Part shown: piece by piece, positions 14,509 to 60,454 of the stretch | Layout of the letters: each line of letters starts with the position of its first letter | How positions within the stretch are numbered: position 1 is the first letter of the stretch | Sequence record: SRR22947727_633 | Strand: one strand, 5' to 3' | Length of the DNA: 63,223 nt | Program-made: the position numbers and the translations under genes | The notes under the pieces: model-generated | Seen by the model: the letters and a program-made list of their open reading frames with translations, nothing else | Told to the model about the DNA's origin: nothing | Databases searched by the model: none

Positions 14509-15641
14509 TGAAAAAATTACTATTTATAGATAGAGACGGCACCCTAATCAAGGAACCTGCAGATTATCAAATAGACGCTTTTGAGAAATTAGTCTTTTAT
14601 CCATATGTTTTTCAATATCTAGCTAAGATTGCTAGAGAACTGGATTTTGAGCTTGTAATGGTGTCCAATCAAGATGGCTTGGGAACCGATTCATTTCCAG
14701 AAAATACCTTTTGGCCGGTTCAAAATTTTATAATAGACAGTTTTGAAAGGGAAGGCGTTGTGTTTTCTGAGGTCATTATAGACAAAACCTTTGCCAGTGA
14801 AAATGCACCTACCAGAAAGCCAGGTACGGCCTTACTTGCTGCTTACATGGATGGCTCTTATGATTTAGGTAATTCTTTTGTTATTGGTGACAGAATAACA
14901 GATGTGGCTTTGGCAAAAAACCTTGGAGCCAAAGCTATTTTTATGCGTCAGGAAGTGGGTCTTGGAGGAGAAGAACTCGCTGAGAGCCAGAAAGACTTAG
15001 AAGATTTTATTGTACTTGAAACAACAGAGTGGAGTAAGATATACAGTTTTTTAAGGGCAGGGGAACGCAAGGTTACGCTGGAAAGAAATACGCATGAAAC
15101 CCAAATATCTATTGGTATAGATCTTGACGGCAAAGGTGCTTCAAATATCCAAACAGGGATTCATTTCTTTGATCATATGTTAGACCAATTATCCAGACAC
15201 GGACTGATAGATTTAGATATTACAGTTAAAGGGGACTTGGCCGTAGACGAGCACCACACCATAGAAGACACCGCTATTGCGCTAGGAGAAGCTTTCCATA
15301 AGGCATTAGGAAACAAGCTTGGGGTTGAGCGATATGGTTTTTGCTTGCCTATGGATGACTGTCAAGCTCAAGTTTCTATAGATTTTGGTGGTAGAAACTG
15401 GTTGGTATGGGATGCTGAATTTAACCGAGAAATGATCGGTAAAATGCCTACAGAAATGTTTATGCATTTTTTCAAATCCTTTTCAGATGGTGCAAAAGCA
15501 AATTTGAATATTCAAGCGACTGGACAAAATGAACACCACAAGATAGAGGCTATTTTTAAAGCTTTTGCTAAGGCCATTAAAATGGCTATAAAAAGAGACC
15601 CCGACAAATTATTTTTACCATCTACTAAAGGCGTATTGTAA
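14505..15641 (+). CDS. hisB: Bifunctional histidinol-phosphatase / imidazoleglycerol-phosphate dehydratase
   Basis: [11 protein letters not shown] motif; DEHHTIED and NEHHKIEA motifs. Confidence 0.96.
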
Positions 15642-49349: not shown

Positions 49350-50717
49350 ATGGACGCGCCTTTAACCACCTCATTTGAGGAATTTAATCTAAATACCCCC
49401 TTAAAAAATAACCTATCAGAGGTTGGTTATGAAGTACCGACCCCCATACAAGGAGCCACTTATGCCTCAGTCTTGTCAGGTCAAGATGTACTGGGATTAG
49501 CACAAACTGGAACAGGTAAAACCTTGGCGTACTTACTACCTATTTTAAACGACCTTAAATTTGCAAAAGAAAAGACAGTTCGCGCCTTAGTGATTGTGCC
49601 AACAAGAGAATTGGTTTCTCAAGTTGTTGAGGAAGCGGAGAAAATCTGTCAGAATACCTTTATTCGTGTTTGTGGGGTACACGGGGGTAATTCCATGAAA
49701 AAAGACCGGGATGCTTTGGCGCAAAGCGCCGACATCATTGTAGCAACTCCAGGAAGGTTGTACGATTTATTTTTAGCTAGAGTCATAAAATATGCTGCCA
49801 TAAAGAAAGTGGTCATAGATGAAGTAGACGTTATGTTGGACCTTGGATTTAGGTTTCAACTCACCAACATTTTTGACCTTTTGCCTAAAAAAAGGCAACA
49901 TATTATGTTTTCTGCCACCATGACGGATGAAATTGAAAGCCTTATTTCAGACTTTTTCATTGCGCCAAAAAGGATTTATATTGCTATGAGTGGTACACCA
50001 CTCAAAAATATAGCACAAACTGCCTATGCAGTCCCTAATTATTATACAAAAGTCAATCTATTACAACATCTTTTGGAACAAGAGGAAACCTTTAAAAAGG
50101 TATTGGTTTTTGTATCTAATAAAAAAATATCTGACCGAATTTACGAACAACTAGAACCTGTTTTTGAGAAGAATATAGGGATTGTTCATGCCAATAAAAC
50201 ACAAAACCACAGGAATAGGGTCCTGAGTGCGTTTGACGCAGGAAGGATCCGTATTGTAATTGCTACAGATTTAGTCGCTAGAGGTTTAGATATAGATCAA
50301 ATATCCCATGTAATAAATTTCGATACGCCCAAATATCCTGAAAACTATATGCACAGGATTGGAAGAACGGGTAGAGCTAACGCAGATGGAAATTCCATAT
50401 TGCTACACAATCCAGAAGAGTTGGCATATAAGGAAGCCATTGAGACGCTCATGCAAATTGCTGTACCTGACGTTGAATTTCCCAAAGAAGTGCCTGTTTC
50501 TATTCAATTAGCTCCTGAAGAACAACCCCATACATTTGAACCAGATTCAGATAAATTACAAGGAAGAGATCCGTCTTTAGGATCCGGTTTCCATGAAAAG
50601 TCAGAGAAGAACAAACAAGAAAATCAAGGAGGTTCATACAAACGTATCATAGCTAAGAAATACAAAAAGCCAAAGACTCGCGGCGATAAGAATTACAACA
50701 AAGGGAAAAGAAAGTAG
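49350..50717 (+). CDS. DEAD-box RNA helicase
   Basis: Q motif TPIQ, AQTGTGKT, PTREL, DEVD, SAT, ARGLD, HRIGRTGR; TATCTTTG at 49329-49336. Confidence 0.93.
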   Translation: MDAPLTTSFEEFNLNTPLKNNLSEVGYEVPTPIQGATYASVLSGQDVLGLAQTGTGKTLAYLLPILNDLKFAKEKTVRALVIVPTRELVSQVVEEAEKICQNTFIRVCGVHGGNSMKKDRDALAQSADIIVATPGRLYDLFLARVIKYAAIKKVVIDEVDVMLDLGFRFQLTNIFDLLPKKRQHIMFSATMTDEIESLISDFFIAPKRIYIAMSGTPLKNIAQTAYAVPNYYTKVNLLQHLLEQEETFKKVLVFVSNKKISDRIYEQLEPVFEKNIGIVHANKTQNHRNRVLSAFDAGRIRIVIATDLVARGLDIDQISHVINFDTPKYPENYMHRIGRTGRANADGNSILLHNPEELAYKEAIETLMQIAVPDVEFPKEVPVSIQLAPEEQPHTFEPDSDKLQGRDPSLGSGFHEKSEKNKQENQGGSYKRIIAKKYKKPKTRGDKNYNKGKRK

Positions 50718-50783
50718 TTTTTTGTGTTATAATTTCTTTGGTATCAATCATTGAACTAGTAAAGTGTTTGAATACAAATGTAT

Positions 50784-50814
50784 TTGTTCTATAATGTTCC
50801 GCGTTATGTAACTT
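50784..50814 (+). other. Degenerate dif-like XerC/XerD site with 9-bp spacer (left island boundary)
   Basis: TTGTTCTATAA-TGTTCCGCG-TTATGTAACTT; arms match the site at 57759 at 10/11 and 9/11 positions. Confidence 0.7.
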
Positions 50815-50952
50815 GAGCTTTGATTAAAAGCGAAAAGTTTCTACTAATTTTCTCTGGTTTTTTTCTTTCTAAAAATTTTCATTTCAAAAGGTAATGGAAC
50901 ACTTTTTACGCGAGCCGACCCTAGGAGGGGAGTTTAATGTGTGTGGAATGGT

Positions 50953-52182
50953 TCAACTAGCTTTTGTATACTTAATAGATATGGTACCATTCACTAATCT
51001 ATTCTCATTATCAATACCACTAAAAACGCCATCTTGAATTAATTTTTCATTTTTTAGATAGAATGTTTTAAAATAGACATTTACCCTTTCTAATGCTATG
51101 ATTCCTGAAAAAGTAAATCTAAAATTTATAACTGTCCCTTTATTTATAAGTTCCATTCTATCTTTTTCTATATATACATTTTCGGTTAAAGTAATTATCT
51201 TATAATTTGAAGACAAAACTTTGAATTTGATCACTTCAGTATAATTATCTTCTAAATTAAAACTGAGTTCATAGGTTCCAGGTATTTTTGAATAAATGGA
51301 TGAAAACGGACTTTTATCAGATAATTCTAAATAATGTTTAGGGACTTTACGATTATTAATAATTCGTTTATTTCTAATTTCTAAAGCAATATATGGGGGA
51401 ATATTGAAGTTTTTTGACTTTTCTTCCATAATCTGTCTTGATTCACATTTTTCAAGAATAGATCGTCCAGCAACCGTATTAGAATAAACATCAAAGTTAC
51501 TATAGGTGCCTACCAAAAAGTTAATATTTGATGGTTCTTGATGTCCTATGTAATATATTTCACTTGAGCCATTAATGTATCTACCACTAGATAGTGTTTT
51601 GGTTCTAATATAAATGGTGTCTCCTTGTCTTACAATAGTACCATGACTATAATGTTCTTTTAAAGTACGATCTTCTTGAGGATACATGAATACATGCTGA
51701 ATTTTAGTCCAGTTATTAGAAATAATCGTTTGCCCTTTTAGAAGAATGTCTTCCTCGCCAAAATAATAGTTCAAATAATAATAGGTGGTATTAGCTGAAT
51801 CTTTATTCAGTAATGCCAGTTGTTTCTTAATTTCATCTTTAGATAATTTATAATCGTCTAAAAACTTTTCAAAATTTTCATAACCTATATATAATAGAAT
51901 AATAGATTTATAGTATTCATTTAATTTGATGGTGGCTTTCCCTTTTTCTAATTCCCTCGATTTATCATAAAGATATTTACCATTAATAACCTCAGTACCA
52001 ATAGTTTCAAAATCCTTTTTTAAACTAGGTTTGTTTTCATCAAAAGCCCCATACCCATATAATTGAAAGGTTTTAGGTAGTTTAGATAACTGATGCTTTT
52101 TAGTAAATTTTGCATGTACTGCTTCTAAAACAATTTTGAAATATTCTGAAGTTAACACGAGGGCACCTGATTTTACTGGCAT
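50953..52182 (-). CDS. Hypothetical protein; candidate regulator (helical N-domain plus two tandem beta-rich domains)
   Basis: 409-aa soluble-looking ORF divergent from the TonB receptor; internal repeat VGTYSNFD..TVAGRSIL versus DGVFSGID..LVNGTISI. Confidence 0.6.
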   Translation of the reverse strand: MPVKSGALVLTSEYFKIVLEAVHAKFTKKHQLSKLPKTFQLYGYGAFDENKPSLKKDFETIGTEVINGKYLYDKSRELEKGKATIKLNEYYKSIILLYIGYENFEKFLDDYKLSKDEIKKQLALLNKDSANTTYYYLNYYFGEEDILLKGQTIISNNWTKIQHVFMYPQEDRTLKEHYSHGTIVRQGDTIYIRTKTLSSGRYINGSSEIYYIGHQEPSNINFLVGTYSNFDVYSNTVAGRSILEKCESRQIMEEKSKNFNIPPYIALEIRNKRIINNRKVPKHYLELSDKSPFSSIYSKIPGTYELSFNLEDNYTEVIKFKVLSSNYKIITLTENVYIEKDRMELINKGTVINFRFTFSGIIALERVNVYFKTFYLKNEKLIQDGVFSGIDNENRLVNGTISIKYTKAS

Positions 52183-52207
52183 ATAAAATTCCTGAAATTT
52201 TTATAAA

Positions 52208-52231
52208 ATTATTAAAAATATTTTTAATAAT
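52208..52231. promoter_or_regulatory. Perfect 24-bp palindrome in the divergent intergenic region (candidate operator)
   Basis: ATTATTAAAAATATTTTTAATAAT is self-complementary, but entirely A/T. Confidence 0.35.
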
Positions 52232-52295
52232 AAAAATGAATAAGAATTAATATCTAGCTGATTACTTTAGAACAACTAATTAATTCTTCCATATC

Positions 52296-54632
52296 ATGAA
52301 AACAAACATTTTATGTGTACTACTGCTAGCGACATCTATTGCATTTGCACAAAATAACATAACGGGAAAAGTAACTGACACCTTTGGTGAACCATTACCA
52401 GGTGCGAATGTTTTAGAACAAGGCACAACTAACGGAGCTATTGCCGATTACAATGGAAATTATACAATTACGGTTACTTCAGAAACTGCCGTTTTAGAAT
52501 TCTCATACTTAGGTTTTGAAAAACAAGAGGTTACAGCTAGTAGCAGCATCATTGATATTCAGTTAACGGAATCTTCTGAAGCATTAGATGGGTTAACCGT
52601 ACAGGGTTTTGCAGGTGTTATTGGTAAATCGCGTAAGCGAACTGCTTCCATTCAAACCACACCAGAATCTGTTACAGCATTGAATGCAGAGGGCATCGAA
52701 AGTGCTGGGGTAACTGATATTAACTCGTTTTCAACTTTGGTACCTAATTTAAAATTCAATTCCGCACAAGCAGTTGGTCTTAACTTTATAACCGTCAGGG
52801 GTATACCTCAGGTTAGGGGTGGAGATGCACCTTTAGCGTTTGTTATTGATGGTGTTACCATTCCTGACCCAAGTTTATTAAGTCAAGGCTTATTTGATTT
52901 AGCCTTAGTGGAAGTGGTTAAAGGACCACAAGGTGCCTTATACGGTAAAAATGCTATTGGTGGTGCCATCAACATTTATACGAAAGAGCCCACAAATAAA
53001 ATGACTAATCGTATTATGCTTGGTGCAGGTAATGGTGGTAATTTACAAGCACAATTTGTGTCTTCTGGTGCCATTTCAAAAGACAAAGTTTTCTATCGTT
53101 TCTCTACGCAATACAAAAATTTTGATGGGTTGTTAACCAATGAATTCCTAGACCAAAAAGTTGATTTCTCTAAAGAGTTTAGTGTTAGAGGCCAAATTAA
53201 AGCCAGGGTATCTGATAATTTCACGGTAGCAGCAACCATTCAGCATTTTAATATAGATGGTGGCGCAACCTATTACTCGGTTAATCCGACGGGTACTGAT
53301 GGCGAATTTACAGGAGGTATTTTAGACCCGAATCCGAAGGATGGAAATAATGTAATTTTTGCGAATGTCTTGGGAAGATCCGACATGAAAAACAATTACG
53401 GAAACTTTAAGATGGATTACAATCTAAAGGGTGCAACCCTTCAAAGTATTACCTCCTTCAATAAAGTCGGCCGATCAACAAATGGTGATTTAGATTTTTT
53501 AGAGCTTGATGGCTTAACGCAAGCAGAAGAAATTAGTACAAATACCTTTAATCAAGAAATACGAATCAATAATACGAATACAGATACAAAATTCGATTGG
53601 AGTGCAGGTGGTTTTTATCAGAATATCAAAAGAGATGTATTGCAAAACGGAACAACTGGAGTTGACTTTGGTGGACCATTTGATTTTGATACTTCAGATT
53701 TTGTAAATGAAACAAAAACCATAGCCCTGTTTGGTTTTGGAGACTATAAAATAACAGATAAGTTTACGGTTTCTGCAGGTTTTAGATATGACATCGACAA
53801 CTTTACACAAGACGATGCATTATTTGTTACGAATTCAGAAAGAGATAATAGCGAGTTTCAACCCAAAGTTTCATTGTCGTATCAAGTATCAAAAGATGTA
53901 TTGTTTTACGCCAACTATGGTAGAGGCTATAGAAACGGAGGCTTTAATGCAGATGCTACTGATTTGTTTAATAGAACTTTTGATGATGAAACATCAGACA
54001 ATTATGAGCTAGGTTTTAAAACAACATCTTGGAACGATCGTTTCATTTTTAATGGTTCAATCTTTAGTTCTAACTTAACCAATCAGCAACAATACATTTT
54101 AGACTTAAACACTTTTATTGCAGGTATTTATAATTATGATGAAACCAAAGTGTTTGGTTTTGAATTAGAGTCTCGTGCTAGGTTAACTAACTATTTAGAC
54201 GTTTTTGCAAATTTCGGATTATCTGACGCAGAAATAATTAATGGAGGGGCTAGTGGTATTACTGATTATTCTATTTATGACGGACAAAAGGTGCCTTTTG
54301 TTCCTGTGAGTAGTTTTGCCGTTGGTTTAGAATCATCATTTAACATTAATGACAATCTAAAGTTTAATGGGTTTTTAAATCTTGATACTACAGGAAAAAC
54401 ATATTGGCATGAAACCAATACAGATGCAAATACAACAGCAGCATATTCGTTACTTGACGCACGCATTGGTTTATCTTATAAAAACTGGAAGCTTGATATT
54501 TGGGGTAAAAACCTTACCGACACGCAATACTACAGAGAATTTTCGCCAGGAGAATTTGTGGGCAGTCCTGATGACGTAGCTTGGAGAGGTCAACCCGTAT
54601 CTGTTGGCACAGCACTAACTGTAAAATTCTAA
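52296..54632 (+). CDS. TonB-dependent receptor (non-SusC type)
   Basis: Signal peptide, N-terminal GEPLPGANV..GT domain, plug motif VEVVKGPQGALYGKNAIGGAINI, NLTD..Y, C-terminal Phe. Confidence 0.93.
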   Translation: MKTNILCVLLLATSIAFAQNNITGKVTDTFGEPLPGANVLEQGTTNGAIADYNGNYTITVTSETAVLEFSYLGFEKQEVTASSSIIDIQLTESSEALDGLTVQGFAGVIGKSRKRTASIQTTPESVTALNAEGIESAGVTDINSFSTLVPNLKFNSAQAVGLNFITVRGIPQVRGGDAPLAFVIDGVTIPDPSLLSQGLFDLALVEVVKGPQGALYGKNAIGGAINIYTKEPTNKMTNRIMLGAGNGGNLQAQFVSSGAISKDKVFYRFSTQYKNFDGLLTNEFLDQKVDFSKEFSVRGQIKARVSDNFTVAATIQHFNIDGGATYYSVNPTGTDGEFTGGILDPNPKDGNNVIFANVLGRSDMKNNYGNFKMDYNLKGATLQSITSFNKVGRSTNGDLDFLELDGLTQAEEISTNTFNQEIRINNTNTDTKFDWSAGGFYQNIKRDVLQNGTTGVDFGGPFDFDTSDFVNETKTIALFGFGDYKITDKFTVSAGFRYDIDNFTQDDALFVTNSERDNSEFQPKVSLSYQVSKDVLFYANYGRGYRNGGFNADATDLFNRTFDDETSDNYELGFKTTSWNDRFIFNGSIFSSNLTNQQQYILDLNTFIAGIYNYDETKVFGFELESRARLTNYLDVFANFGLSDAEIINGGASGITDYSIYDGQKVPFVPVSSFAVGLESSFNINDNLKFNGFLNLDTTGKTYWHETNTDANTTAAYSLLDARIGLSYKNWKLDIWGKNLTDTQYYREFSPGEFVGSPDDVAWRGQPVSVGTALTVKF

Positions 54633-54667
54633 ACACTTTCATTAACTATAGTTTAATTAGTTTAAAT

Positions 54668-54696
54668 GGGAGGGAAATTAAACCTTCCCTCTTTTT
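54668..54696 (+). terminator. Hairpin with short T-run between receptor and enzyme genes (partial terminator or stabiliser)
   Basis: GGGAGGGAA-ATTAAACC-TTCCCTCTT-TTT. Confidence 0.5.
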
Positions 54697-54707
54697 ATGT
54701 ATTCCAA

Positions 54708-55748
54708 ATGCCAACAGACAAACAATTAATTACAACGCGCTTTTCTAAAATATTAATTGAAACCATGTTTCAAGTAAAACCTGGTGAAACGGTAGCCATT
54801 ACTGCAGATTCTGAATCTAATCGAAACGTTATAGATGCTATAGCCGCAGCAACCACAGTTGCTGGAGGAATACCTTTAGTTATGCGAATACCAAAAGCTG
54901 CCCAAAGCGGGCAGGCTGGCATGAAAGAATGGCCAGCAGAAGCATTAACTGCAGCACTTTGTAAGGTAGATGTATGGATTGACGCACAATCAACAGTATT
55001 ACTATATTCTGATATTTGGGAAACCGCTTTTAAAGAAAATAATAAATTAAGATATCTAATCATAGCAGATTCTAGTATCGAATCTTTAGATAGAATGTTT
55101 ACCGGTTTTGATATCCAATTACTTAAATCTCTTTTAAGTAAAGTTAGAGATATGGCAATGGCTTGTAAAAAAGTTCATATTACGAGTACTAATGGTACCG
55201 ATGTGTCTTATGATATAGACCTTAATTATGCATTTGATATTGATGATGGCGATTATTCTATGCCAAAATTCGGAACGGCTCCAGGGTTTATAAATATAGT
55301 TCCTAAATTAGGCAGTATGAATGGGACTATCGCTTTTGATATATTGGAAGGAGCTCCAAGAGATGGCCAAATACAATTCACCATGAAAAATGGTTCAATT
55401 ATAGATGTAAATGGAGAAAATGGAGTAGAAGATTTTAAATCATATTTGGCATCATTTGATGATGAAAATATGTATAAAATATCTCATAATATGTTTGGCT
55501 TAAATCCAGGAATAAAAGCCATAACAGGCGAACTTTGTGAAGACGAACGTATTTGGGGTGGAGTAGACTTTGGGTTTGGTCACACTAGTGCAATGGATAT
55601 GCCACCTTATGGTCAAGAAGCAAAATCGCATTTTGATGGTGTGGTTACTAACGTTTCTATATATTTAGACTACATTCAAATTTTTGACAATGGTGTCGTA
55701 TGCCATCCTGATTTAATACCCTTGGTCAATAACTTATTAACTAATTAA
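54708..55748 (+). CDS. M29/aminopeptidase-T-fold metalloenzyme, NicX-like
   Basis: VKPGETVAITAD, ITSTNGTD, NGTIAFD, ISHNMFGLNP, EDERIWG, SHFDG; start likely MPTDKQ at 54708. Confidence 0.72.
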   Translation: MPTDKQLITTRFSKILIETMFQVKPGETVAITADSESNRNVIDAIAAATTVAGGIPLVMRIPKAAQSGQAGMKEWPAEALTAALCKVDVWIDAQSTVLLYSDIWETAFKENNKLRYLIIADSSIESLDRMFTGFDIQLLKSLLSKVRDMAMACKKVHITSTNGTDVSYDIDLNYAFDIDDGDYSMPKFGTAPGFINIVPKLGSMNGTIAFDILEGAPRDGQIQFTMKNGSIIDVNGENGVEDFKSYLASFDDENMYKISHNMFGLNPGIKAITGELCEDERIWGGVDFGFGHTSAMDMPPYGQEAKSHFDGVVTNVSIYLDYIQIFDNGVVCHPDLIPLVNNLLTN

Positions 55749-55749
55749 A

Positions 55750-57015
55750 ATGGCAGAAGACCAAAATCAATACACGACCACAAAAGTGCAACCAAATGAC
55801 TTTGTGTCTGGTTGGGTTGTTGGTTTCATTATTGCGAGTACAGGATTATCAGTTTCTACATTATTTTTAGGTTCAGAAATTGCACTCAATCTAGGTCTTA
55901 AGCAAGCGCTTATAGCATTTGGTATTTCCACATTTGTTTTGACTTTAATGTGTATGGCAACCACATTAATTGGTAATCGATCTCGGTTATCAACGTACAT
56001 GATTCTACATTTTAGTTTTGGAGAATATGGAGCTAAAATTGTCAATTTTATTTTCGGTGTTACATTAATTGGTTGGTTTGCTGTAGCCATAGAGTTATTA
56101 GCAATTGCCATATATGATACTTCAATAAGTACTTTCAATATCATTGTATCAAAGGAGCTTATCATCATTGTAACAAGTCTGTTTATAACCGTTACAACAG
56201 TTTACGGCTTACGCAGTATTGAAAAGCTTGCCAATATCTCTATTCCAATTTTAACGGCGTTTTTAGGGTATGTCTTTTATCTATGTGTAGCAGATTTAGA
56301 GAGTCTATCGCAACTTTTCGACTATGTTCCAAAAGAAAATTCAATGACACTTTTTGAAGCAACGTCTATTTTAATAGGTGCTGCAGTTTTATTTCCTGTA
56401 TTAATGGCAGATTTTTCTAGATTTATAAAAACAGATAAACAAAGTTTATTTTCAGTATTGGGTTTAACTATAGGTACACCTTTAGCCTATATTCTAAGTG
56501 CTGTACCAGCTATTCAAACGGGTGAAGTTGATATTATTAAAATAATGCAGCAGTACAATTTGGTAATTCCTGCGTTTATATTATTGTTTATAGCGACTTG
56601 GAGTACCAATGCCACCAATCTATATTCCGCCAGCTTAACATTTTCAACAATTAACAAAAACTGGACTTTTAAAAAGGTTGCTATAGTTGCGAGTATATTT
56701 GGTACAATATTAGCCTTGTTAGGTTTTGCTACCTATCTATTTGATTTTCTAGAATTCCTTGGAATATTAGCACCATCAATTTCTTCAATATATTTCATTC
56801 ATTTCTTTTGGATTAAAAAACAGAAATATAATCTAGAAGATATAAACAAATGGGAATCTTCAGCTTTAATTAGTTGGGTGTTGAGTTCCGTAATTTGCCT
56901 ATTTACATATTTAGAAGTTTTTCAATTAACTAGAGCCTATTTTATAGATTCGTTTTTGTTGGGAGGGCTTATTTATTTGATACTAGAAAGAAAAAATATC
57001 TTGAATAAAAATTAG
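55750..57015 (+). CDS. NCS1-family (cytosine/purine permease-like) transporter
   Basis: About 12 TM segments, FG..GAK, IGWFAV, ADFSRF, TNATNLYSA. Confidence 0.88.
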   Translation: MAEDQNQYTTTKVQPNDFVSGWVVGFIIASTGLSVSTLFLGSEIALNLGLKQALIAFGISTFVLTLMCMATTLIGNRSRLSTYMILHFSFGEYGAKIVNFIFGVTLIGWFAVAIELLAIAIYDTSISTFNIIVSKELIIIVTSLFITVTTVYGLRSIEKLANISIPILTAFLGYVFYLCVADLESLSQLFDYVPKENSMTLFEATSILIGAAVLFPVLMADFSRFIKTDKQSLFSVLGLTIGTPLAYILSAVPAIQTGEVDIIKIMQQYNLVIPAFILLFIATWSTNATNLYSASLTFSTINKNWTFKKVAIVASIFGTILALLGFATYLFDFLEFLGILAPSISSIYFIHFFWIKKQKYNLEDINKWESSALISWVLSSVICLFTYLEVFQLTRAYFIDSFLLGGLIYLILERKNILNKN

Positions 57016-57031
57016 GTTTAAGCTAGATTTT

Positions 57032-57250
57032 GGCCTAAGAGAATTTTAGCTAAACAATAGGAGAGGGGAGCGGCCATATTCTAGAGGGCTGGTAATTAAG
57101 TTTATTAACCACCTTAATATTTGAAAGAGTTCGAGGCAGTCTTAAGAGTTAGAATGCTTTCTAGAATATAGCGACCGAGCCGTACATTGTTTCTAAAATT
57201 ATCTGTAAGCCTTGATTTTTTTGTTTCTTTTTTTATCAAGAAAAAAAGAT
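57032..57250 (-). ncRNA. Structured RNA-like element: 5' H-type pseudoknot plus long hairpin (resembles the Flavo-1 motif, unverified)
   Basis: Minus strand UCUUUUUUU-CUUGAU-AAAAAAAGA-(9 nt)-AUCAAG, then nested stems GGCUUA/UAGGCC, AAUUUUAG/CUAAAAUU, AAACAAUG/UAUUGUUU, GCUAUAUUCUAGA/UCUAGAAUAUGGC. Confidence 0.55.
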
Positions 57251-57286
57251 AAATAAAAACCTTACTGGTTACAATGTTGAAATCCT

Positions 57287-57297
57287 ATTTTACATAA
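57287..57297 (-). repeat. Isolated XerD-arm half-site (inverted)
   Basis: ATTTTACATAA, the exact reverse complement of the dif right arm; no recognisable partner arm. Confidence 0.55.
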
Positions 57298-57484
57298 TGT
57301 TAGGGACACATTAAAAAAAAACTTCAAACAAGACGAGAGGTTAGCAAGGGCTAAGAAATTATCTCGCAGAGTAATTTTTAGCTGTTGCGGCACGCTGACG
57401 AGAATGCTGTAGAAAAAAATCTTGCACACATTTTCTCGAATACACGAATTTTAAATGAATCTAAAAGGCTAGCTTTTAAATGGC

Positions 57485-57571
57485 GTTGGCAAGCGATGGC
57501 AAATTGTGTTTAAATTTAAAATGCGTTTTTCAGCATTTTATAATTTAAAAAGCAATCGAGCGCTTGGTAGC
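57485..57571. repeat. Long imperfect inverted repeat abutting an inverted dif-like site
   Basis: CAAGCG/CGCTTG, ATTG/CAAT, TTTAAATT/AATTTAAA and TAAAATGC/GCATTTTA nested around a GTTTTTCA loop. Confidence 0.7.
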
Positions 57572-57575
57572 GGCT

Positions 57576-57604
57576 ATTTTACATAACGGCTAATTATAGA
57601 TACA
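57576..57604 (-). other. Inverted dif-like site with 7-bp spacer
   Basis: Minus strand TGTATCTATAA-TTAGCCG-TTATGTAAAAT. Confidence 0.72.
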
Positions 57605-57693
57605 AATGTTTTATAAACTCTGCGAAGCAAACCGCTTAATAGTTTAATGACCCAAGTTCCAATTATTCTTATGAAATACAATGCTTCTGGGAT

Positions 57694-57722
57694 ATTTTAC
57701 ATAATACTACATTATAGCTATC
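57694..57722 (-). other. Inverted dif-like site with 7-bp spacer
   Basis: Minus strand GATAGCTATAA-TGTAGTA-TTATGTAAAAT. Confidence 0.72.
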
Positions 57723-57758
57723 AAATGGACTTCTCTCATAAAATACCAATGATAACAT

Positions 57759-57786
57759 TTGTACTATAATTTATATTATGTAAAAT
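57759..57786 (+). other. dif: Probable chromosomal dif site (XerC/XerD recombination site)
   Basis: TTGTACTATAA-TTTATA-TTATGTAAAAT: 11-6-11 geometry; right arm matches the E. coli XerD arm TTATGTTAAAT at 10/11 and the spacer matches TGTATA at 5/6; intergenic. Confidence 0.8.
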
Positions 57787-57831
57787 AGAAGCAGTCAATA
57801 ATAATTAATTTACGAACCCTTACACCTATGA

Positions 57832-58293
57832 CTAAACTAAAATCATAATAAAAGTCAATACAATTCCTGCAACAGTATAATAAATGGCTTTTTTAAAAAC
57901 ATCTGTCTGTGGGAGAAACATCCAATAGGCAGAAAAAACAAAGAAAAGTAAAGAGATACCAAAAAAAACATTTAGAAAATATAAAGGTGTAGATGATGTG
58001 GCTTTATGCATTTTTTCAAGCGCTCCTAATATTTTTGGTGGTTGCATTTGTGTATAAGACAAACCACCTGTTTCACTATTATATTCAACGTTAGAGGCAC
58101 CTTTTATATTAGGTAGATTCTCTAAACCTTTTTCTATGGTTTTTTCTACTACTATAGGTTTCTTGAAATAATCTTTATCTCTAAAAGTTAATGTGATTCC
58201 TGAAAGCGCATAAACAAACATAATACCAGCCAGAAAAAAACCTAAATAGCGGTGAATGACCCTGACTTTGTTACTTAAATTCCTGTTATTCAT
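57832..58293 (-). CDS. PepSY-associated TM domain membrane protein
   Basis: R.IHRYLG.F, SGITL, L..MHK, three hydrophobic segments. Confidence 0.75.
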   Translation of the reverse strand: MNNRNLSNKVRVIHRYLGFFLAGIMFVYALSGITLTFRDKDYFKKPIVVEKTIEKGLENLPNIKGASNVEYNSETGGLSYTQMQPPKILGALEKMHKATSSTPLYFLNVFFGISLLFFVFSAYWMFLPQTDVFKKAIYYTVAGIVLTFIMILV

Positions 58294-58477
58294 TTATTCT
58301 TAAAATTTGTATTTATTATGGTATAAAATTAATCATGAACCCTCTTAAAACCAAAAATTACTTTAAAGTATTCAATGGTCTATTCATCATTTACAAGATT
58401 GATGTTAACTATCGTAAGACCCTTAATTAGTGGGAAAGTTTAATAAGCCTACTTAGATCTTTTTAAAAAAAACAAAT

Positions 58478-60454
58478 TTAAAAGTTTATTAATTCTAGGA
58501 GGGCTTTTTCAAATCTTTTTCTTGGTAGATATTCATTCTCTAAGGATTTTGCAAAAGGAATAGGGGTGTTTAAACTTGCGACTCTTTTGATTGGAGCGTC
58601 CAAATACTCAAATAATTCCTCTTGAACACTTGCTGCTATATCACTTGAAATACCACCAAACAAAGAATCTTCTTGAAGAATGATTAGCCTAGAAGTTTTT
58701 TTTACAGAGCCATAAATAGTCTCCCAATCCAATGGCATTAAGGTTCTTAAGTCTATAAGATCTACGCTTAGTTTAGGATGCTTTTCAAGGGTCTCTAGTG
58801 CCCAGTGTACCCCAGCACCATAAGTTATAATTGTAGCCTCTGTACCTTCTTTAACCAAAGCAGCTTTACCTATTGGAAGGTTGTAATACCCATTTGGAAC
58901 GGATTGAGAGATTGATCGATACAGTGCTTTATGTTCAAAGAAAAGTACTGGATTTGGATCTTCAATTGCGGTAATTAATAGGCCTTTAGCATCATAGGGA
59001 AAAGCAGGGTAAACGACTTTTAAACCAGGGGTTTTAGTAAACCATGCCTCATTGGTTTGTGAATGAAAAGGACCAGCCCCTACCCCTGCACCACAAGGCA
59101 TTCTAATGACAACATCTGCTTTTTCTCCCCACCTAAAATGGTTTTTTGCCAGATAATTAACAACGGGATTGAATCCTGAACTTACAAAATCTGCAAATTG
59201 CATTTCAACAATGGCTTTAAAACCACCAATTGACAATCCCATGGCTGTTTCTACAATTCCAGATTCACAAATTGGGGTATTTCTCACACGTTCACTGCCA
59301 AATAAATCTACAAAACCCTCTGTCACTTTGAATGCACCTCCATATAGCGCAATATCCTGGCCCATGATAATCGTGTTTTTCATAGAAGACATGACTTCTT
59401 TTAGGCCCTCTTGAACGGCGTCAATAAATCTAATATAACTTGTATTAACACCACTTTTTACTGCTTTAAAATTAAATGGGCTATAGACATCTTCAATAAA
59501 TGATTTTTCCTCATAGGCTATGGGCTCTTCCTTAAAAGCGAAGTCTAAACCCTCTTGAATGTCTGTTTTTATCTCTTTTTTGAAAGATTTAAGCATCCCA
59601 TCATTCAAAATATTTTTTGAGAATAGATAATTTTCAAAGTTTGTTATAGGGTCTTTTTCTTCCCACGCACTAATTAATTCTTTTGGGACATATTTTGTGC
59701 CGCTGGCCTCTTCATGCCCACGTCTTCTAAAAGTTATAAATTCAATGAGAACAGGTCTAGGATTTTTTCTAACACTTGCGGCTATTTCACTTATTTTTTG
59801 ATAAACTTCTACTATGTTGTTTCCGTCAATTTGGTGGGCTTCCATGCCATATCCAAGCCCTTTGTCTACAATTGCTTTACAACGGTATTGTTCGCTAGTG
59901 GGCGTAGACAATCCGTAACCATTATTTTCAATACAAAACAATACTGGTAAATCCCAAACTGATGCAATATTCAGTGCTTCGTGAAAATCTCCCTCACTGG
60001 TGGCACCTTCACCAGAAAAAACAGCAGTAACTTCGTTATTATGCTTCAATTTGGAAGCTAGCGCAATGCCATCGGCCACACCAAGTTGTGGCCCTAAATG
60101 AGAAATCATTCCAATAATTTTACTTTCTTGACAGCCAAAATGAAAGCTCCTATCCCTACCTTTAGTAAAGCCAGATTTTTTTCCTTGCCACTGAGCAAAT
60201 AACCTGCTTAGCGGTATATTTCTACTGGTAAAAACACCTAGATTTCTATGCATGGGTAATATATATTCCTCTGTATTGAGGGCTAAAGTCACTCCTACGG
60301 ATATGGCTTCTTGACCAATACCACTAAACCACTTTGATATTTTACCCTGCCTGAGTAGCACAAGCATTTTTTCTTCTATCATTCTCGGCTTTAATAGTGC
60401 CTTGTATAATGTTATCAGTTGTTGGTCTGATAGTCCTTTTGTACGGTATGTCAT
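58478..60454 (-). CDS. 2-oxoacid (probably branched-chain) dehydrogenase E1, fused alpha/beta
   Basis: GQEA, TPP motif GEGATSEG..ENNGYG, RGHEE, NTPICE, EMQFADF, HSQ, DLRTL.PLD. Confidence 0.92.
   Translation of the reverse strand: MTYRTKGLSDQQLITLYKALLKPRMIEEKMLVLLRQGKISKWFSGIGQEAISVGVTLALNTEEYILPMHRNLGVFTSRNIPLSRLFAQWQGKKSGFTKGRDRSFHFGCQESKIIGMISHLGPQLGVADGIALASKLKHNNEVTAVFSGEGATSEGDFHEALNIASVWDLPVLFCIENNGYGLSTPTSEQYRCKAIVDKGLGYGMEAHQIDGNNIVEVYQKISEIAASVRKNPRPVLIEFITFRRRGHEEASGTKYVPKELISAWEEKDPITNFENYLFSKNILNDGMLKSFKKEIKTDIQEGLDFAFKEEPIAYEEKSFIEDVYSPFNFKAVKSGVNTSYIRFIDAVQEGLKEVMSSMKNTIIMGQDIALYGGAFKVTEGFVDLFGSERVRNTPICESGIVETAMGLSIGGFKAIVEMQFADFVSSGFNPVVNYLAKNHFRWGEKADVVIRMPCGAGVGAGPFHSQTNEAWFTKTPGLKVVYPAFPYDAKGLLITAIEDPNPVLFFEHKALYRSISQSVPNGYYNLPIGKAALVKEGTEATIITYGAGVHWALETLEKHPKLSVDLIDLRTLMPLDWETIYGSVKKTSRLIILQEDSLFGGISSDIAASVQEELFEYLDAPIKRVASLNTPIPFAKSLENEYLPRKRFEKALLELINF

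Follow-up and report, generated by a model that had tools for sequence, protein, structure and literature searches.

Results

Features of the locus

The DNA stretch SRR22947727_633, analysed here over its whole length of 63,223 nucleotides (the window), contains a canonical 11-6-11 dif site, TTGTACTATAA-TTTATA-TTATGTAAAAT, at the peak of the cumulative GC skew, and in this dif site a 6,975-bp insertion made up of four open reading frames (ORFs) between non-coding modules (Table 1). Three copies of the XerD arm of dif, inverted relative to dif and designated S1, S2 and S3, lie in the right-end module. An initial annotation had suggested that each of these arms may mark a separate insertion whose body was later lost. 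The analysis presented below indicates that they are very probably part of a single Xer-dependent cassette module.

Table 1. Features of the cassette inserted at dif (window positions).
Feature	Position	Strand	Remarks
Left junction (attL)	50784..50814	+	Chromosomal XerC arm TTGTTCTATAA, 9-nt cassette centre TGTTCCGCG, degenerate XerD-like arm TTATGTAACTT; homology to genome G001 ends here
Left-end module, about 165 bp, non-coding	50795..50960	+	Hairpin beside the XerD-like arm; conserved GGAACAC...GTGTG stem; 23-copy alignment
Cargo ORF, 409 amino acids	50953..52182	-	No Pfam or NCBIfam match
Cargo TonB-dependent outer-membrane receptor	52296..54632	+	Pfam TonB_dep_Rec_b-barrel (1.8e-38), Plug, CarbopepD_reg_2; NCBIfam siderophore-receptor subfamily below its cut-off
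Cargo ORF, 360 amino acids	54666..55748	+	Weak sub-threshold Pfam matches; no NCBIfam match
Cargo NCS1-family permease (cytosine permease-like)	55750..57015	+	Pfam Transp_cyt_pur (7.9e-17); NCBIfam cytosine permease (1.5e-52), below its cut-off
Block A of right-end module	57026..57262	+	Conserved folded element, then T run and A/T hairpin
S1, lone inverted XerD arm without XerC core	57287..57297	-	Lies in the variable linker that separates block A from block B
Block B of right-end module	57373..57560	+	Conserved non-coding; 25-copy alignment
S2, inverted dif-like site	57576..57603	-	XerD arm 11/11 identical to dif; 7-nt spacer CGGCTAA (on +); XerC core TTATAG; outer arm displaced by 1 nt
S3, inverted dif-like site	57694..57721	-	XerD arm 11/11; 7-nt spacer TACTACA (on +); XerC core TTATAG; outer arm with two 1-nt bulges
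Hairpin-loop stretch, S3 to direct site	57722..57758	.	Centre variable in sequence and length; conserved ends CAAATG and CATTTG pair
dif (attR)	57759..57786	+	XerC arm TTGTACTATAA of cassette type; centre TTTATA and XerD arm TTATGTAAAAT chromosomal

The exact 11-mer ATTTTACATAA was confirmed at 57287, 57576 and 57694 on the + strand; the window has just one further exact copy, at 57776-57786 of the - strand, and this copy forms the XerD arm of dif itself. When one mismatch was allowed, 13 matches were obtained against 7.35 expected, a number reached in 3 of 100 shuffles, so that only the cluster of exact copies is remarkable. Since the nearest genome (G001, 1.5 Mb) contained the 11-mer three times, merely equal to the reversed control, four copies within 500 bp are far beyond chance. 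The description of TTATAG 7 bp after two of the copies was also correct: the core follows the copies at 57576 and 57694 after unrelated spacers, and none follows the copy at 57287.

A single insertion in dif

The match of G001 to window positions 50000-50795 and 57756-58000 was contiguous, the two parts overlapping by 15 bases at a plain dif site (TTGTTCTATAA-TTTATA-TTATGTAAAAT) which lies between a DEAD-box helicase gene and a PepSY-like gene. The window DNA from 50795 to 57769 (6,975 bp) is therefore extra DNA, an insertion in the chromosomal dif site. At the same place G001 and five close relatives all have this plain site (or a form ending in AAAAC). The left junction is a hybrid dif-like site in direct repeat relative to dif, which is retained as a complete 11-6-11 site at the right end (57759-57786), and this junction type was found at 22 further places in the loci fetched from other genomes. 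The XerC arm of the window dif is the variant typical of cassettes in other genera. The two XerC arms differ by T or A at position 5. This polymorphism is distributed over the two junctions in the way that a crossover between XerC arm and centre would produce, and we therefore place the crossover there, which is also the position of the XerC cut in known systems. The chromosomal XerC arm is now at the left junction and the cassette XerC arm is now within dif.

Occupation of the site varied between strains, as the initial annotation had anticipated for a cassette hotspot. Among six loci with a helicase 93-100% identical to that of the window, five had an empty dif and one carried a different cassette. 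The metagenome runs consist of contigs, so that rare excision products are beyond their reach; in run X18 one contig joined 50780 to 57756, the insertion being absent, and in run X10 the depth of the flanks was 224 and 162 compared with 23.5 inside the cassette. Several different sequences abutted positions 57756-57760 in metagenome contigs. A low-depth contig of run X10 also joined 57598 to 57765, skipping 166 bases from the XerC core of S2 to that of dif; this joint was set aside as evidence, as its shorter side has 25 letters and it may stem from a relative with a shorter module.

With its single left junction the window holds one cassette and no stack, and its cargo consists of uptake genes. 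Pfam and NCBIfam searches of the four ORFs gave no integrase domain, two of the four being without any family, and no recombinase, replication or transfer gene was found in the insertion.

Conserved non-coding modules

To follow the module beyond the window we used 201 Flavobacteriaceae genomes, one per genus. A query covering module, dif and flank (57016-57830) matched 174 of the 201, many of them only at dif. The right-end module is about 760 bp long; partial matches across genera were 66-92% identical, full-length copies in six genera were 70-82% identical, and often at least two copies lay a few kb apart in one genome. The strict motif ATTTTACATAA-N7-TTATAG had 96 matches in 50 of the 201 genomes compared with 1 match for the reversed control and, among the matches listed, occurred mostly in neighbouring pairs or groups on one strand, a clustered and not a scattered distribution, in support of the initial annotation.

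In the alignment of ten genera, S2 and S3 had invariant XerD arms and nearly invariant TTATAG cores, their spacers were largely kept and the intervening DNA was conserved, while the stretch from S3 to the direct arm was variable. The two sites stood in register inside most full-length module copies, both in these ten genera and in 20 fetched loci. Two spacer classes recurred in many genera, YGNCWAA in S2 and either TAnnRMA or a 5-nt spacer in S3. We considered the copy at 57287 as a chance match and rejected this explanation, since 7 of 20 other distinct linkers also contain an S1-like arm with 0-1 mismatch, which in six of the seven lies 24-33 nt into the linker. S1 is thus a facultative lone XerD arm of the module.

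Block A has a conserved fold which was supported by covariation: over 26 copies and 36 pairs, 97.7% of cells were paired compared with 93.2% in shuffles (0 of 500 reached the observed value) and 46-63% in slid controls, and there were 50 double-change cells compared with 16 in shuffles. Its conserved G.U pairs lie on the + strand. The element (about 195 nt) is closed by a GGCC...GGCC-like helix, and contains an inner helix CATATTTTAGGGG/TTTCCTAAAATATAG; next come a T run and an A/T hairpin that shows compensatory variants. The fold of block B was weaker than that of block A, with 22 pairs of which 7 showed a compensatory change. In the left-end module, the hairpin at 50804-50840 overlaps the XerD-like arm and occurs in alternative compensated forms (GAGCTTTGGTTAAAAGC.. 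and TTGCTTGGGTAAAGCAA..), the conserved stem GGAACAC...GTGTG lies at 50900-50960, and pair 112-156 changed from CG to UA in 7 of 23 copies. Rfam gave nothing credible, either at permissive E-values (55500-59000 and 50600-51100) or at gathering scores (whole window), and a promoter and terminator consensus scan of 50600-58400 returned counts like those of shuffles, with nothing called in the module.

The cassette family in other genomes

The same order of elements recurred in 20 fetched stretches from 18 genomes: a XerC arm, the centre TGTWCYGCG and the arm TTATGTAACTT; the left module of about 165 bp; cargo; block A; block B; S2; S3, with a spacer of 7 or 5 nt; and a direct XerC arm. This last arm is followed either by the 9-nt centre of the next cassette or by the chromosomal TTTATA-TTATGTAAAAT. 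Cassettes in other genomes occur in tandem at dif, and serial insertions there leave directly repeated junctions with the 9-nt centre and no inverted arms; the proposed hotspot at dif is supported.

Twenty complete cassettes from 14 genomes ranged from 0.9 to 11.9 kb. Their 108 cargo ORFs of at least 80 amino acids formed only three small similarity clusters, and 92 of the 108 read towards the module. For the Pfam scan 105 of these ORFs were searched together and the remaining three, from the window, separately. Cargo matches elsewhere included type I and type IIG restriction-modification, SMODS/ThiF-JAB genes resembling the cyclic-oligonucleotide-based anti-phage signalling system (CBASS), prokaryotic STING, ParDE, copper-resistance and polyamine genes. 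The cargo of loci L026, L030, L037, L045, L036 and others is rich in anti-phage systems, namely type I restriction-modification with an AAA_15 ATPase, Eco57I-type enzymes, SMODS with ThiF/JAB, STING with a LexA-like regulator, HNH-STAND and ParDE. Among the 105 ORFs Pfam detected no tyrosine or serine recombinase, Rep or relaxase, and the sole recombination enzyme was an IS3-type transposase pair belonging to an insertion sequence (L028). Candidate host recombinases were present in related genomes: XerD scored above its curated cut-off, together with a second paralogue (251-255 bits), in four of five genomes tested, and neither XerC nor XerD was found in G001, a 64%-complete genome.

At class level, module DNA was matched in 4 of 301 genomes, only by stretches of about 50 nt corresponding to the A/T hairpin. 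The junction core ATAA-TGTWCYGCG-TTATGT had 7 matches in 6 of 401 class genomes, in three other families, and none in the control. One metagenome-assembled genome of Ekhidna, from another order of Bacteroidota, carries a cassette of about 5.8 kb with the whole layout (L077, 14600-20500). Its arms (TTATGTTAA.., XerC core TATATAA) resemble the dif of that host, and its spacers (CGTCTAA, TATCA and TGTACTGCG) are identical to those of Flavobacteriaceae. The fixed arms and variable spacers that the initial annotation had noted are hence reversed across families, where the arms change with the host dif and the spacers stay. That the arms follow the host and the centres stay with the element speaks for functional Xer sites, in support of the Xer-type assignment made initially, and we consider it likely that S2 and S3 would bind XerC and XerD.

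The complete 4.1-Mb genome G170 has 13 S-type sites in three chromosomal regions (about 0.74, 1.09 and 3.59-3.62 Mb), and one of its arrays (L033) has at its end a dif-like site whose centre is different, TGTACTATAA-TTGTTC-TTATGTCAAAT. Because of these separate regions and this different centre, cassettes may also use secondary sites. In L027, a module copy near 15132-15366 (- strand) has a single inverted site made up of the left half of S2 and the right flank of S3, the 118 bp between them being missing. Such a hybrid is expected from recombination of S2 with S3 and hints that both sites recombine.

Full-text literature searches returned no description of such cassettes, and the family, widespread in marine Flavobacteriaceae, is apparently undescribed.

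Folding of S3 with the direct site

The forked hairpin proposed in the initial annotation was real as regards the stem between the last inverted copy and dif. The 14-nt arms of the copy at 57694 and of dif are 100% complementary, and 57683-57792 folded as DNA at -17.6 kcal/mol (z = -5.83), with 0 of 200 shuffles as stable. The outer GCTTCT/AGAAGC pairing did not hold up as a conserved part of the structure, since it uses in part the chromosomal flank, which differs in other genera.

The 14-nt XerC side of the direct site (CATTTGTACTATAA) pairs with the S3 flank with two single-base bulges and with the S2 flank with one. Variants changed on both sides were CAATT/AATTG, TACAG/CTGTA and TTATGA/TCATAA. 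True partners of S3 flank and direct arm paired at -8.43 kcal/mol compared with -6.54 kcal/mol for permuted partners, a difference that 0 of 2000 permutations reached. For the stem of S3 with the direct site we used 20 distinct short-loop copies, in which kin were counted as if independent; 93.9% of cells were paired (30-53% in slid controls), and 7 pairs had changed on both sides compared with 1.7 in shuffles, 0 of 500 of which reached that number. The distance from S3 to the direct site was 13-217 nt in 28 distinct copies and about 30 bp in most. Taken as sequence comparisons, these compensatory changes support pairing between S3 and the direct site.

Discussion

Proposed mechanism

Our favoured reading, to which we give an even chance, is that the three inverted XerD arms are all parts of one mobile cassette, and not the remains of three, which exploits the Xer recombinases in the manner of IMEXs (integrative mobile elements that exploit Xer) and has a folded attachment site. 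Host XerC and XerD would insert the cassette, as they do IMEXs. The direct site of the cassette would be unfit alone because of its 9-nt centre and poor XerD arm; S3 would serve as its inverted partner and S2 as a second copy of that partner, in parallel with attP2 and attP1 of the CTX phage. S3 and the direct site, once single-stranded, would fold into a stem that offers a XerC arm and a XerD arm on either side of a centre that is partly unpaired. One strand would then be exchanged with dif by XerC, and the process would be finished by replication. Foldable junctions would lie on both sides of every cassette in a tandem array, allowing exit and reshuffling. We infer that Xer is required, and likewise the folded strand and the origin of the single strands; the folded-partner mechanism in itself we rate a little short of even.

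Several observations weigh against this reading. Each of the 7 compensatory cells in the stem is a single sequence, the tested structure was derived from the window itself, and the XerD arms mismatch at one position in 5 of the 20 copies. Two sites bound by the same proteins are also partly expected to be complementary without folding. The hairpin formed with the cassette's own 9-nt site was weak (z = -1.06 and +0.75 at two array junctions; -4.5 kcal/mol in L044). The strand indicated by folding depended on the parameters, RNA parameters favouring the - strand in 20 of 23 dif-type copies whereas with DNA parameters the strands did not differ (p = 0.25); the + strand is the one indicated by block A. 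The folded-partner model leaves the presence of two inverted sites plus S1 without explanation. No gene producing single strands, and no helper, was found; a helper acting in trans may be the source of the single-stranded form. Searched with the module and left end, 50,697 phage records yielded nothing beyond marginal low-complexity matches and, in a single Microviridae record, a dif-like match of 31 nt, and the cassette junction pattern had 0 matches in IMG/VR.

The 31-nt match lies in a Microviridae genome from a Ciona sample (MH572525.1, 4492-4522) and is 93.5% identical to the window dif; judged by this likeness, it may be the attachment site of a Flavobacteriaceae microvirus. We also considered 25 IMG/VR loci with the S-site motif as attachment sites and rejected them as a coding coincidence. 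About 10-12 of these share one conserved context, and in the two loci with ORFs listed (L056 and L058) the motif falls inside an ORF of 333 amino acids, which in L056 matches an exonuclease family and stands beside UvsX-like and DnaB-like genes.

Alternative explanations

The most probable alternative requires no folding at all: S1-S3 would be double-stranded accessory XerD/XerC binding sites beside the true crossover site, loading extra recombinase or stopping FtsK from the cassette side, and so setting direction and stability. Models for this are the accessory sequences of cer and psi, which lie on the XerC side of the core as S1-S3 do, and dif discrimination by the gonococcal island. It would suit the perfect XerD arms (11/11) beside XerC arms that keep only their inner 6 nt in register, the orientation of all three XerD arms towards the incoming left replichore, the recurrence of a lone XerD arm in 7 of 20 linkers, and arms that follow the host dif. 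Yet the outer XerC-arm sequence is kept and only displaced by 1-2 nt, which bulged pairing fits better than protein contact, the S3 flank and direct arm show compensatory changes, and the conserved spacers would be without a role; we consider this explanation rather unlikely. An RNA role is less probable still, and we hold it improbable. Here transcripts running from cargo to module would fold, through block A and the stem of S3 with dif, as a terminator, insulator or small RNA, and the XerD-arm copies would be kept only for pairing with dif in the transcript. The covariation-supported fold of block A, with its + strand G.U pairs and following T run, agrees with this, as does the direction of 92 of the 108 cargo ORFs. 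RNA-library contigs covering 56678-57171 and 57413-57650 are weak evidence in its favour, as DNA is possible in such libraries, and neither the uncovered parts of the cassette nor the end positions of the contigs carry weight on transcription. Against it, S2 and S3 keep their likeness to dif although the 3' half of the stem varies according to whether dif or the next cassette adjoins it, the arms in other families change along with the host dif, no terminator-like site was called in the module and no Rfam family was matched.

The original suggestion, that every inverted arm may be left over from an integration of its own whose body has since disappeared, can hardly be maintained. The locus is indeed an insertion hotspot with tandem cassettes in other genomes, and the junction of S2 left half with S3 right flank in L027 suggests that the sites may recombine. 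However, S2 and S3 stand together in register in most full-length copies of one conserved module, with conserved spacers and intervening DNA, whereas real serial insertions leave direct junctions with the 9-nt centre, and the window has only one left junction. The genes that relatives were expected to show between successive sites were seen between S1, S2 and S3 in none of the 20 fetched loci.

A possible integron-like cassette system

A broader proposal, which we put forward as a doubtful possibility, is that Bacteroidota have an integron-like gene-cassette system run on their housekeeping Xer recombinases. At dif, cassettes consisting solely of cargo and some 1 kb of structured non-coding backbone would be captured and stacked, and they would be released as single strands via folded junctions in which the inverted site pairs with the direct site. 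Signals for a replicating, transferring or packaging helper would be provided by block A, block B and the left module, which make up the backbone. If this were true, chromosomal dif in a major marine bacterial group would be a capture site for swappable multi-gene cassettes that need no recombinase of their own, the captured genes including restriction-modification, CBASS/STING-type, toxin-antitoxin, metal-resistance and nutrient-uptake genes. Xer exploitation would be extended from phages and plasmids of Proteobacteria to gene-only cassettes of Bacteroidota, a second natural folded Xer substrate would stand beside that of the CTX phage, and strain-level variation of gene content at the replication terminus in seawater metagenomes would be explained.

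Comparison with known systems

The nearest parallel is the CTX phage of Vibrio cholerae. As set out in parts of PMC4246890, its attP1 has a 12-bp centre and its attP2 a 5-7-bp centre, the two are inverted, 90 bp apart and neither is usable alone; paired in the single-stranded genome they form the substrate, with specificity determined by the bases next to the XerC arm. So far as that partial account allows comparison, cassettes and phage share the lack of an own recombinase, integration at dif that restores a usable dif on one side, two inverted dif-like sites tens of bp apart of which one has an over-long centre and one a centre of 5-7 bp, a crossover on the XerC side, and tandem arrays at dif. 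The cassettes differ from the phage there described in having no phage genes or Rep and a centre of 9 nt, not 12 bp. They also have two inverted partners plus a lone XerD arm, a host in the phylum Bacteroidota, and a conserved non-coding backbone of about 1 kb, the cargo being different in every copy. Their single-stranded form is only inferred, with no Rep or relaxase among the 108 ORFs of 20 cassettes.

The VGJ-type and TLC-type IMEXs and the gonococcal genetic island likewise sit at dif without an integrase of their own, between dif and a hybrid dif-like site. The portions of PMC6744903 and PMC9226527 concerned with them describe a single attP and own replication or activation genes, including XafT in TLC. 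In contrast to the elements as portrayed in those portions, no replication or activation gene was found in the cassettes.

Acinetobacter pdif modules resemble the cassettes in that XerC/XerD-type sites of opposite orientation bound modules with unrelated cargo. The pdif modules are plasmid-borne, with paired sites of 6-nt spacer and no known conserved long non-coding module, whereas the cassettes are chromosomal and lie at dif itself, at the turning point of the skew, with 9-nt and 7-nt spacers and in directional arrays. Integron cassettes share with ours the promiscuous arrays without mobility genes, at each end an imperfect inverted repeat whose bulges are conserved, and a possible single-strand substrate; they differ from ours, which have dif-like sites, sizes of 3.5-12 kb and several genes with own regulators per cassette. 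IntI and attI were not seen in the fetched cassette loci, whole genomes not having been searched for intI. The likeness to pdif modules and attC arrays drawn in the initial annotation holds for unrelated cargo bounded by recombinase sites and for the cassette arrays, and fails for the plasmid location, the 6-nt spacers and IntI/attI.

Within Bacteroidota, temperate phages with single-stranded DNA at dif (phiCjT23-like phages and Bacteroidales microvirus proviruses) share host group, target and size (6-8.4 kb), as far as the partial descriptions go. Sections of PMC9719478 describe dif-flanked examples in Flavobacterium, and sections of PMC3091885 describe microvirus proviruses in Bacteroidales, some with an extra dif-like site near one end. 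Rep and capsid proteins are encoded by the phages in these sections but not by the cassettes, in which no DNA in common with deposited phages was detected. To the extent covered by these sources, single-stranded Xer exploitation therefore has a precedent in the phylum.

The element is thus unlike CTX in the absence of a rolling-circle Rep, and neither a plasmid pdif module nor an integron attC/IntI system. It is inserted in dif with a complete dif at one end and a hybrid direct-repeat site at the other, and no recombinase of its own was found. As in the attachment region of CTX, a direct site with a longer centre (9 nt) is accompanied by an inverted site, S3, with a centre of 7 or 5 nt, at a distance of 13-217 nt in the 28 copies. 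We class it as an IMEX with a CTX-like attachment region, reduced to cargo and a non-coding backbone.

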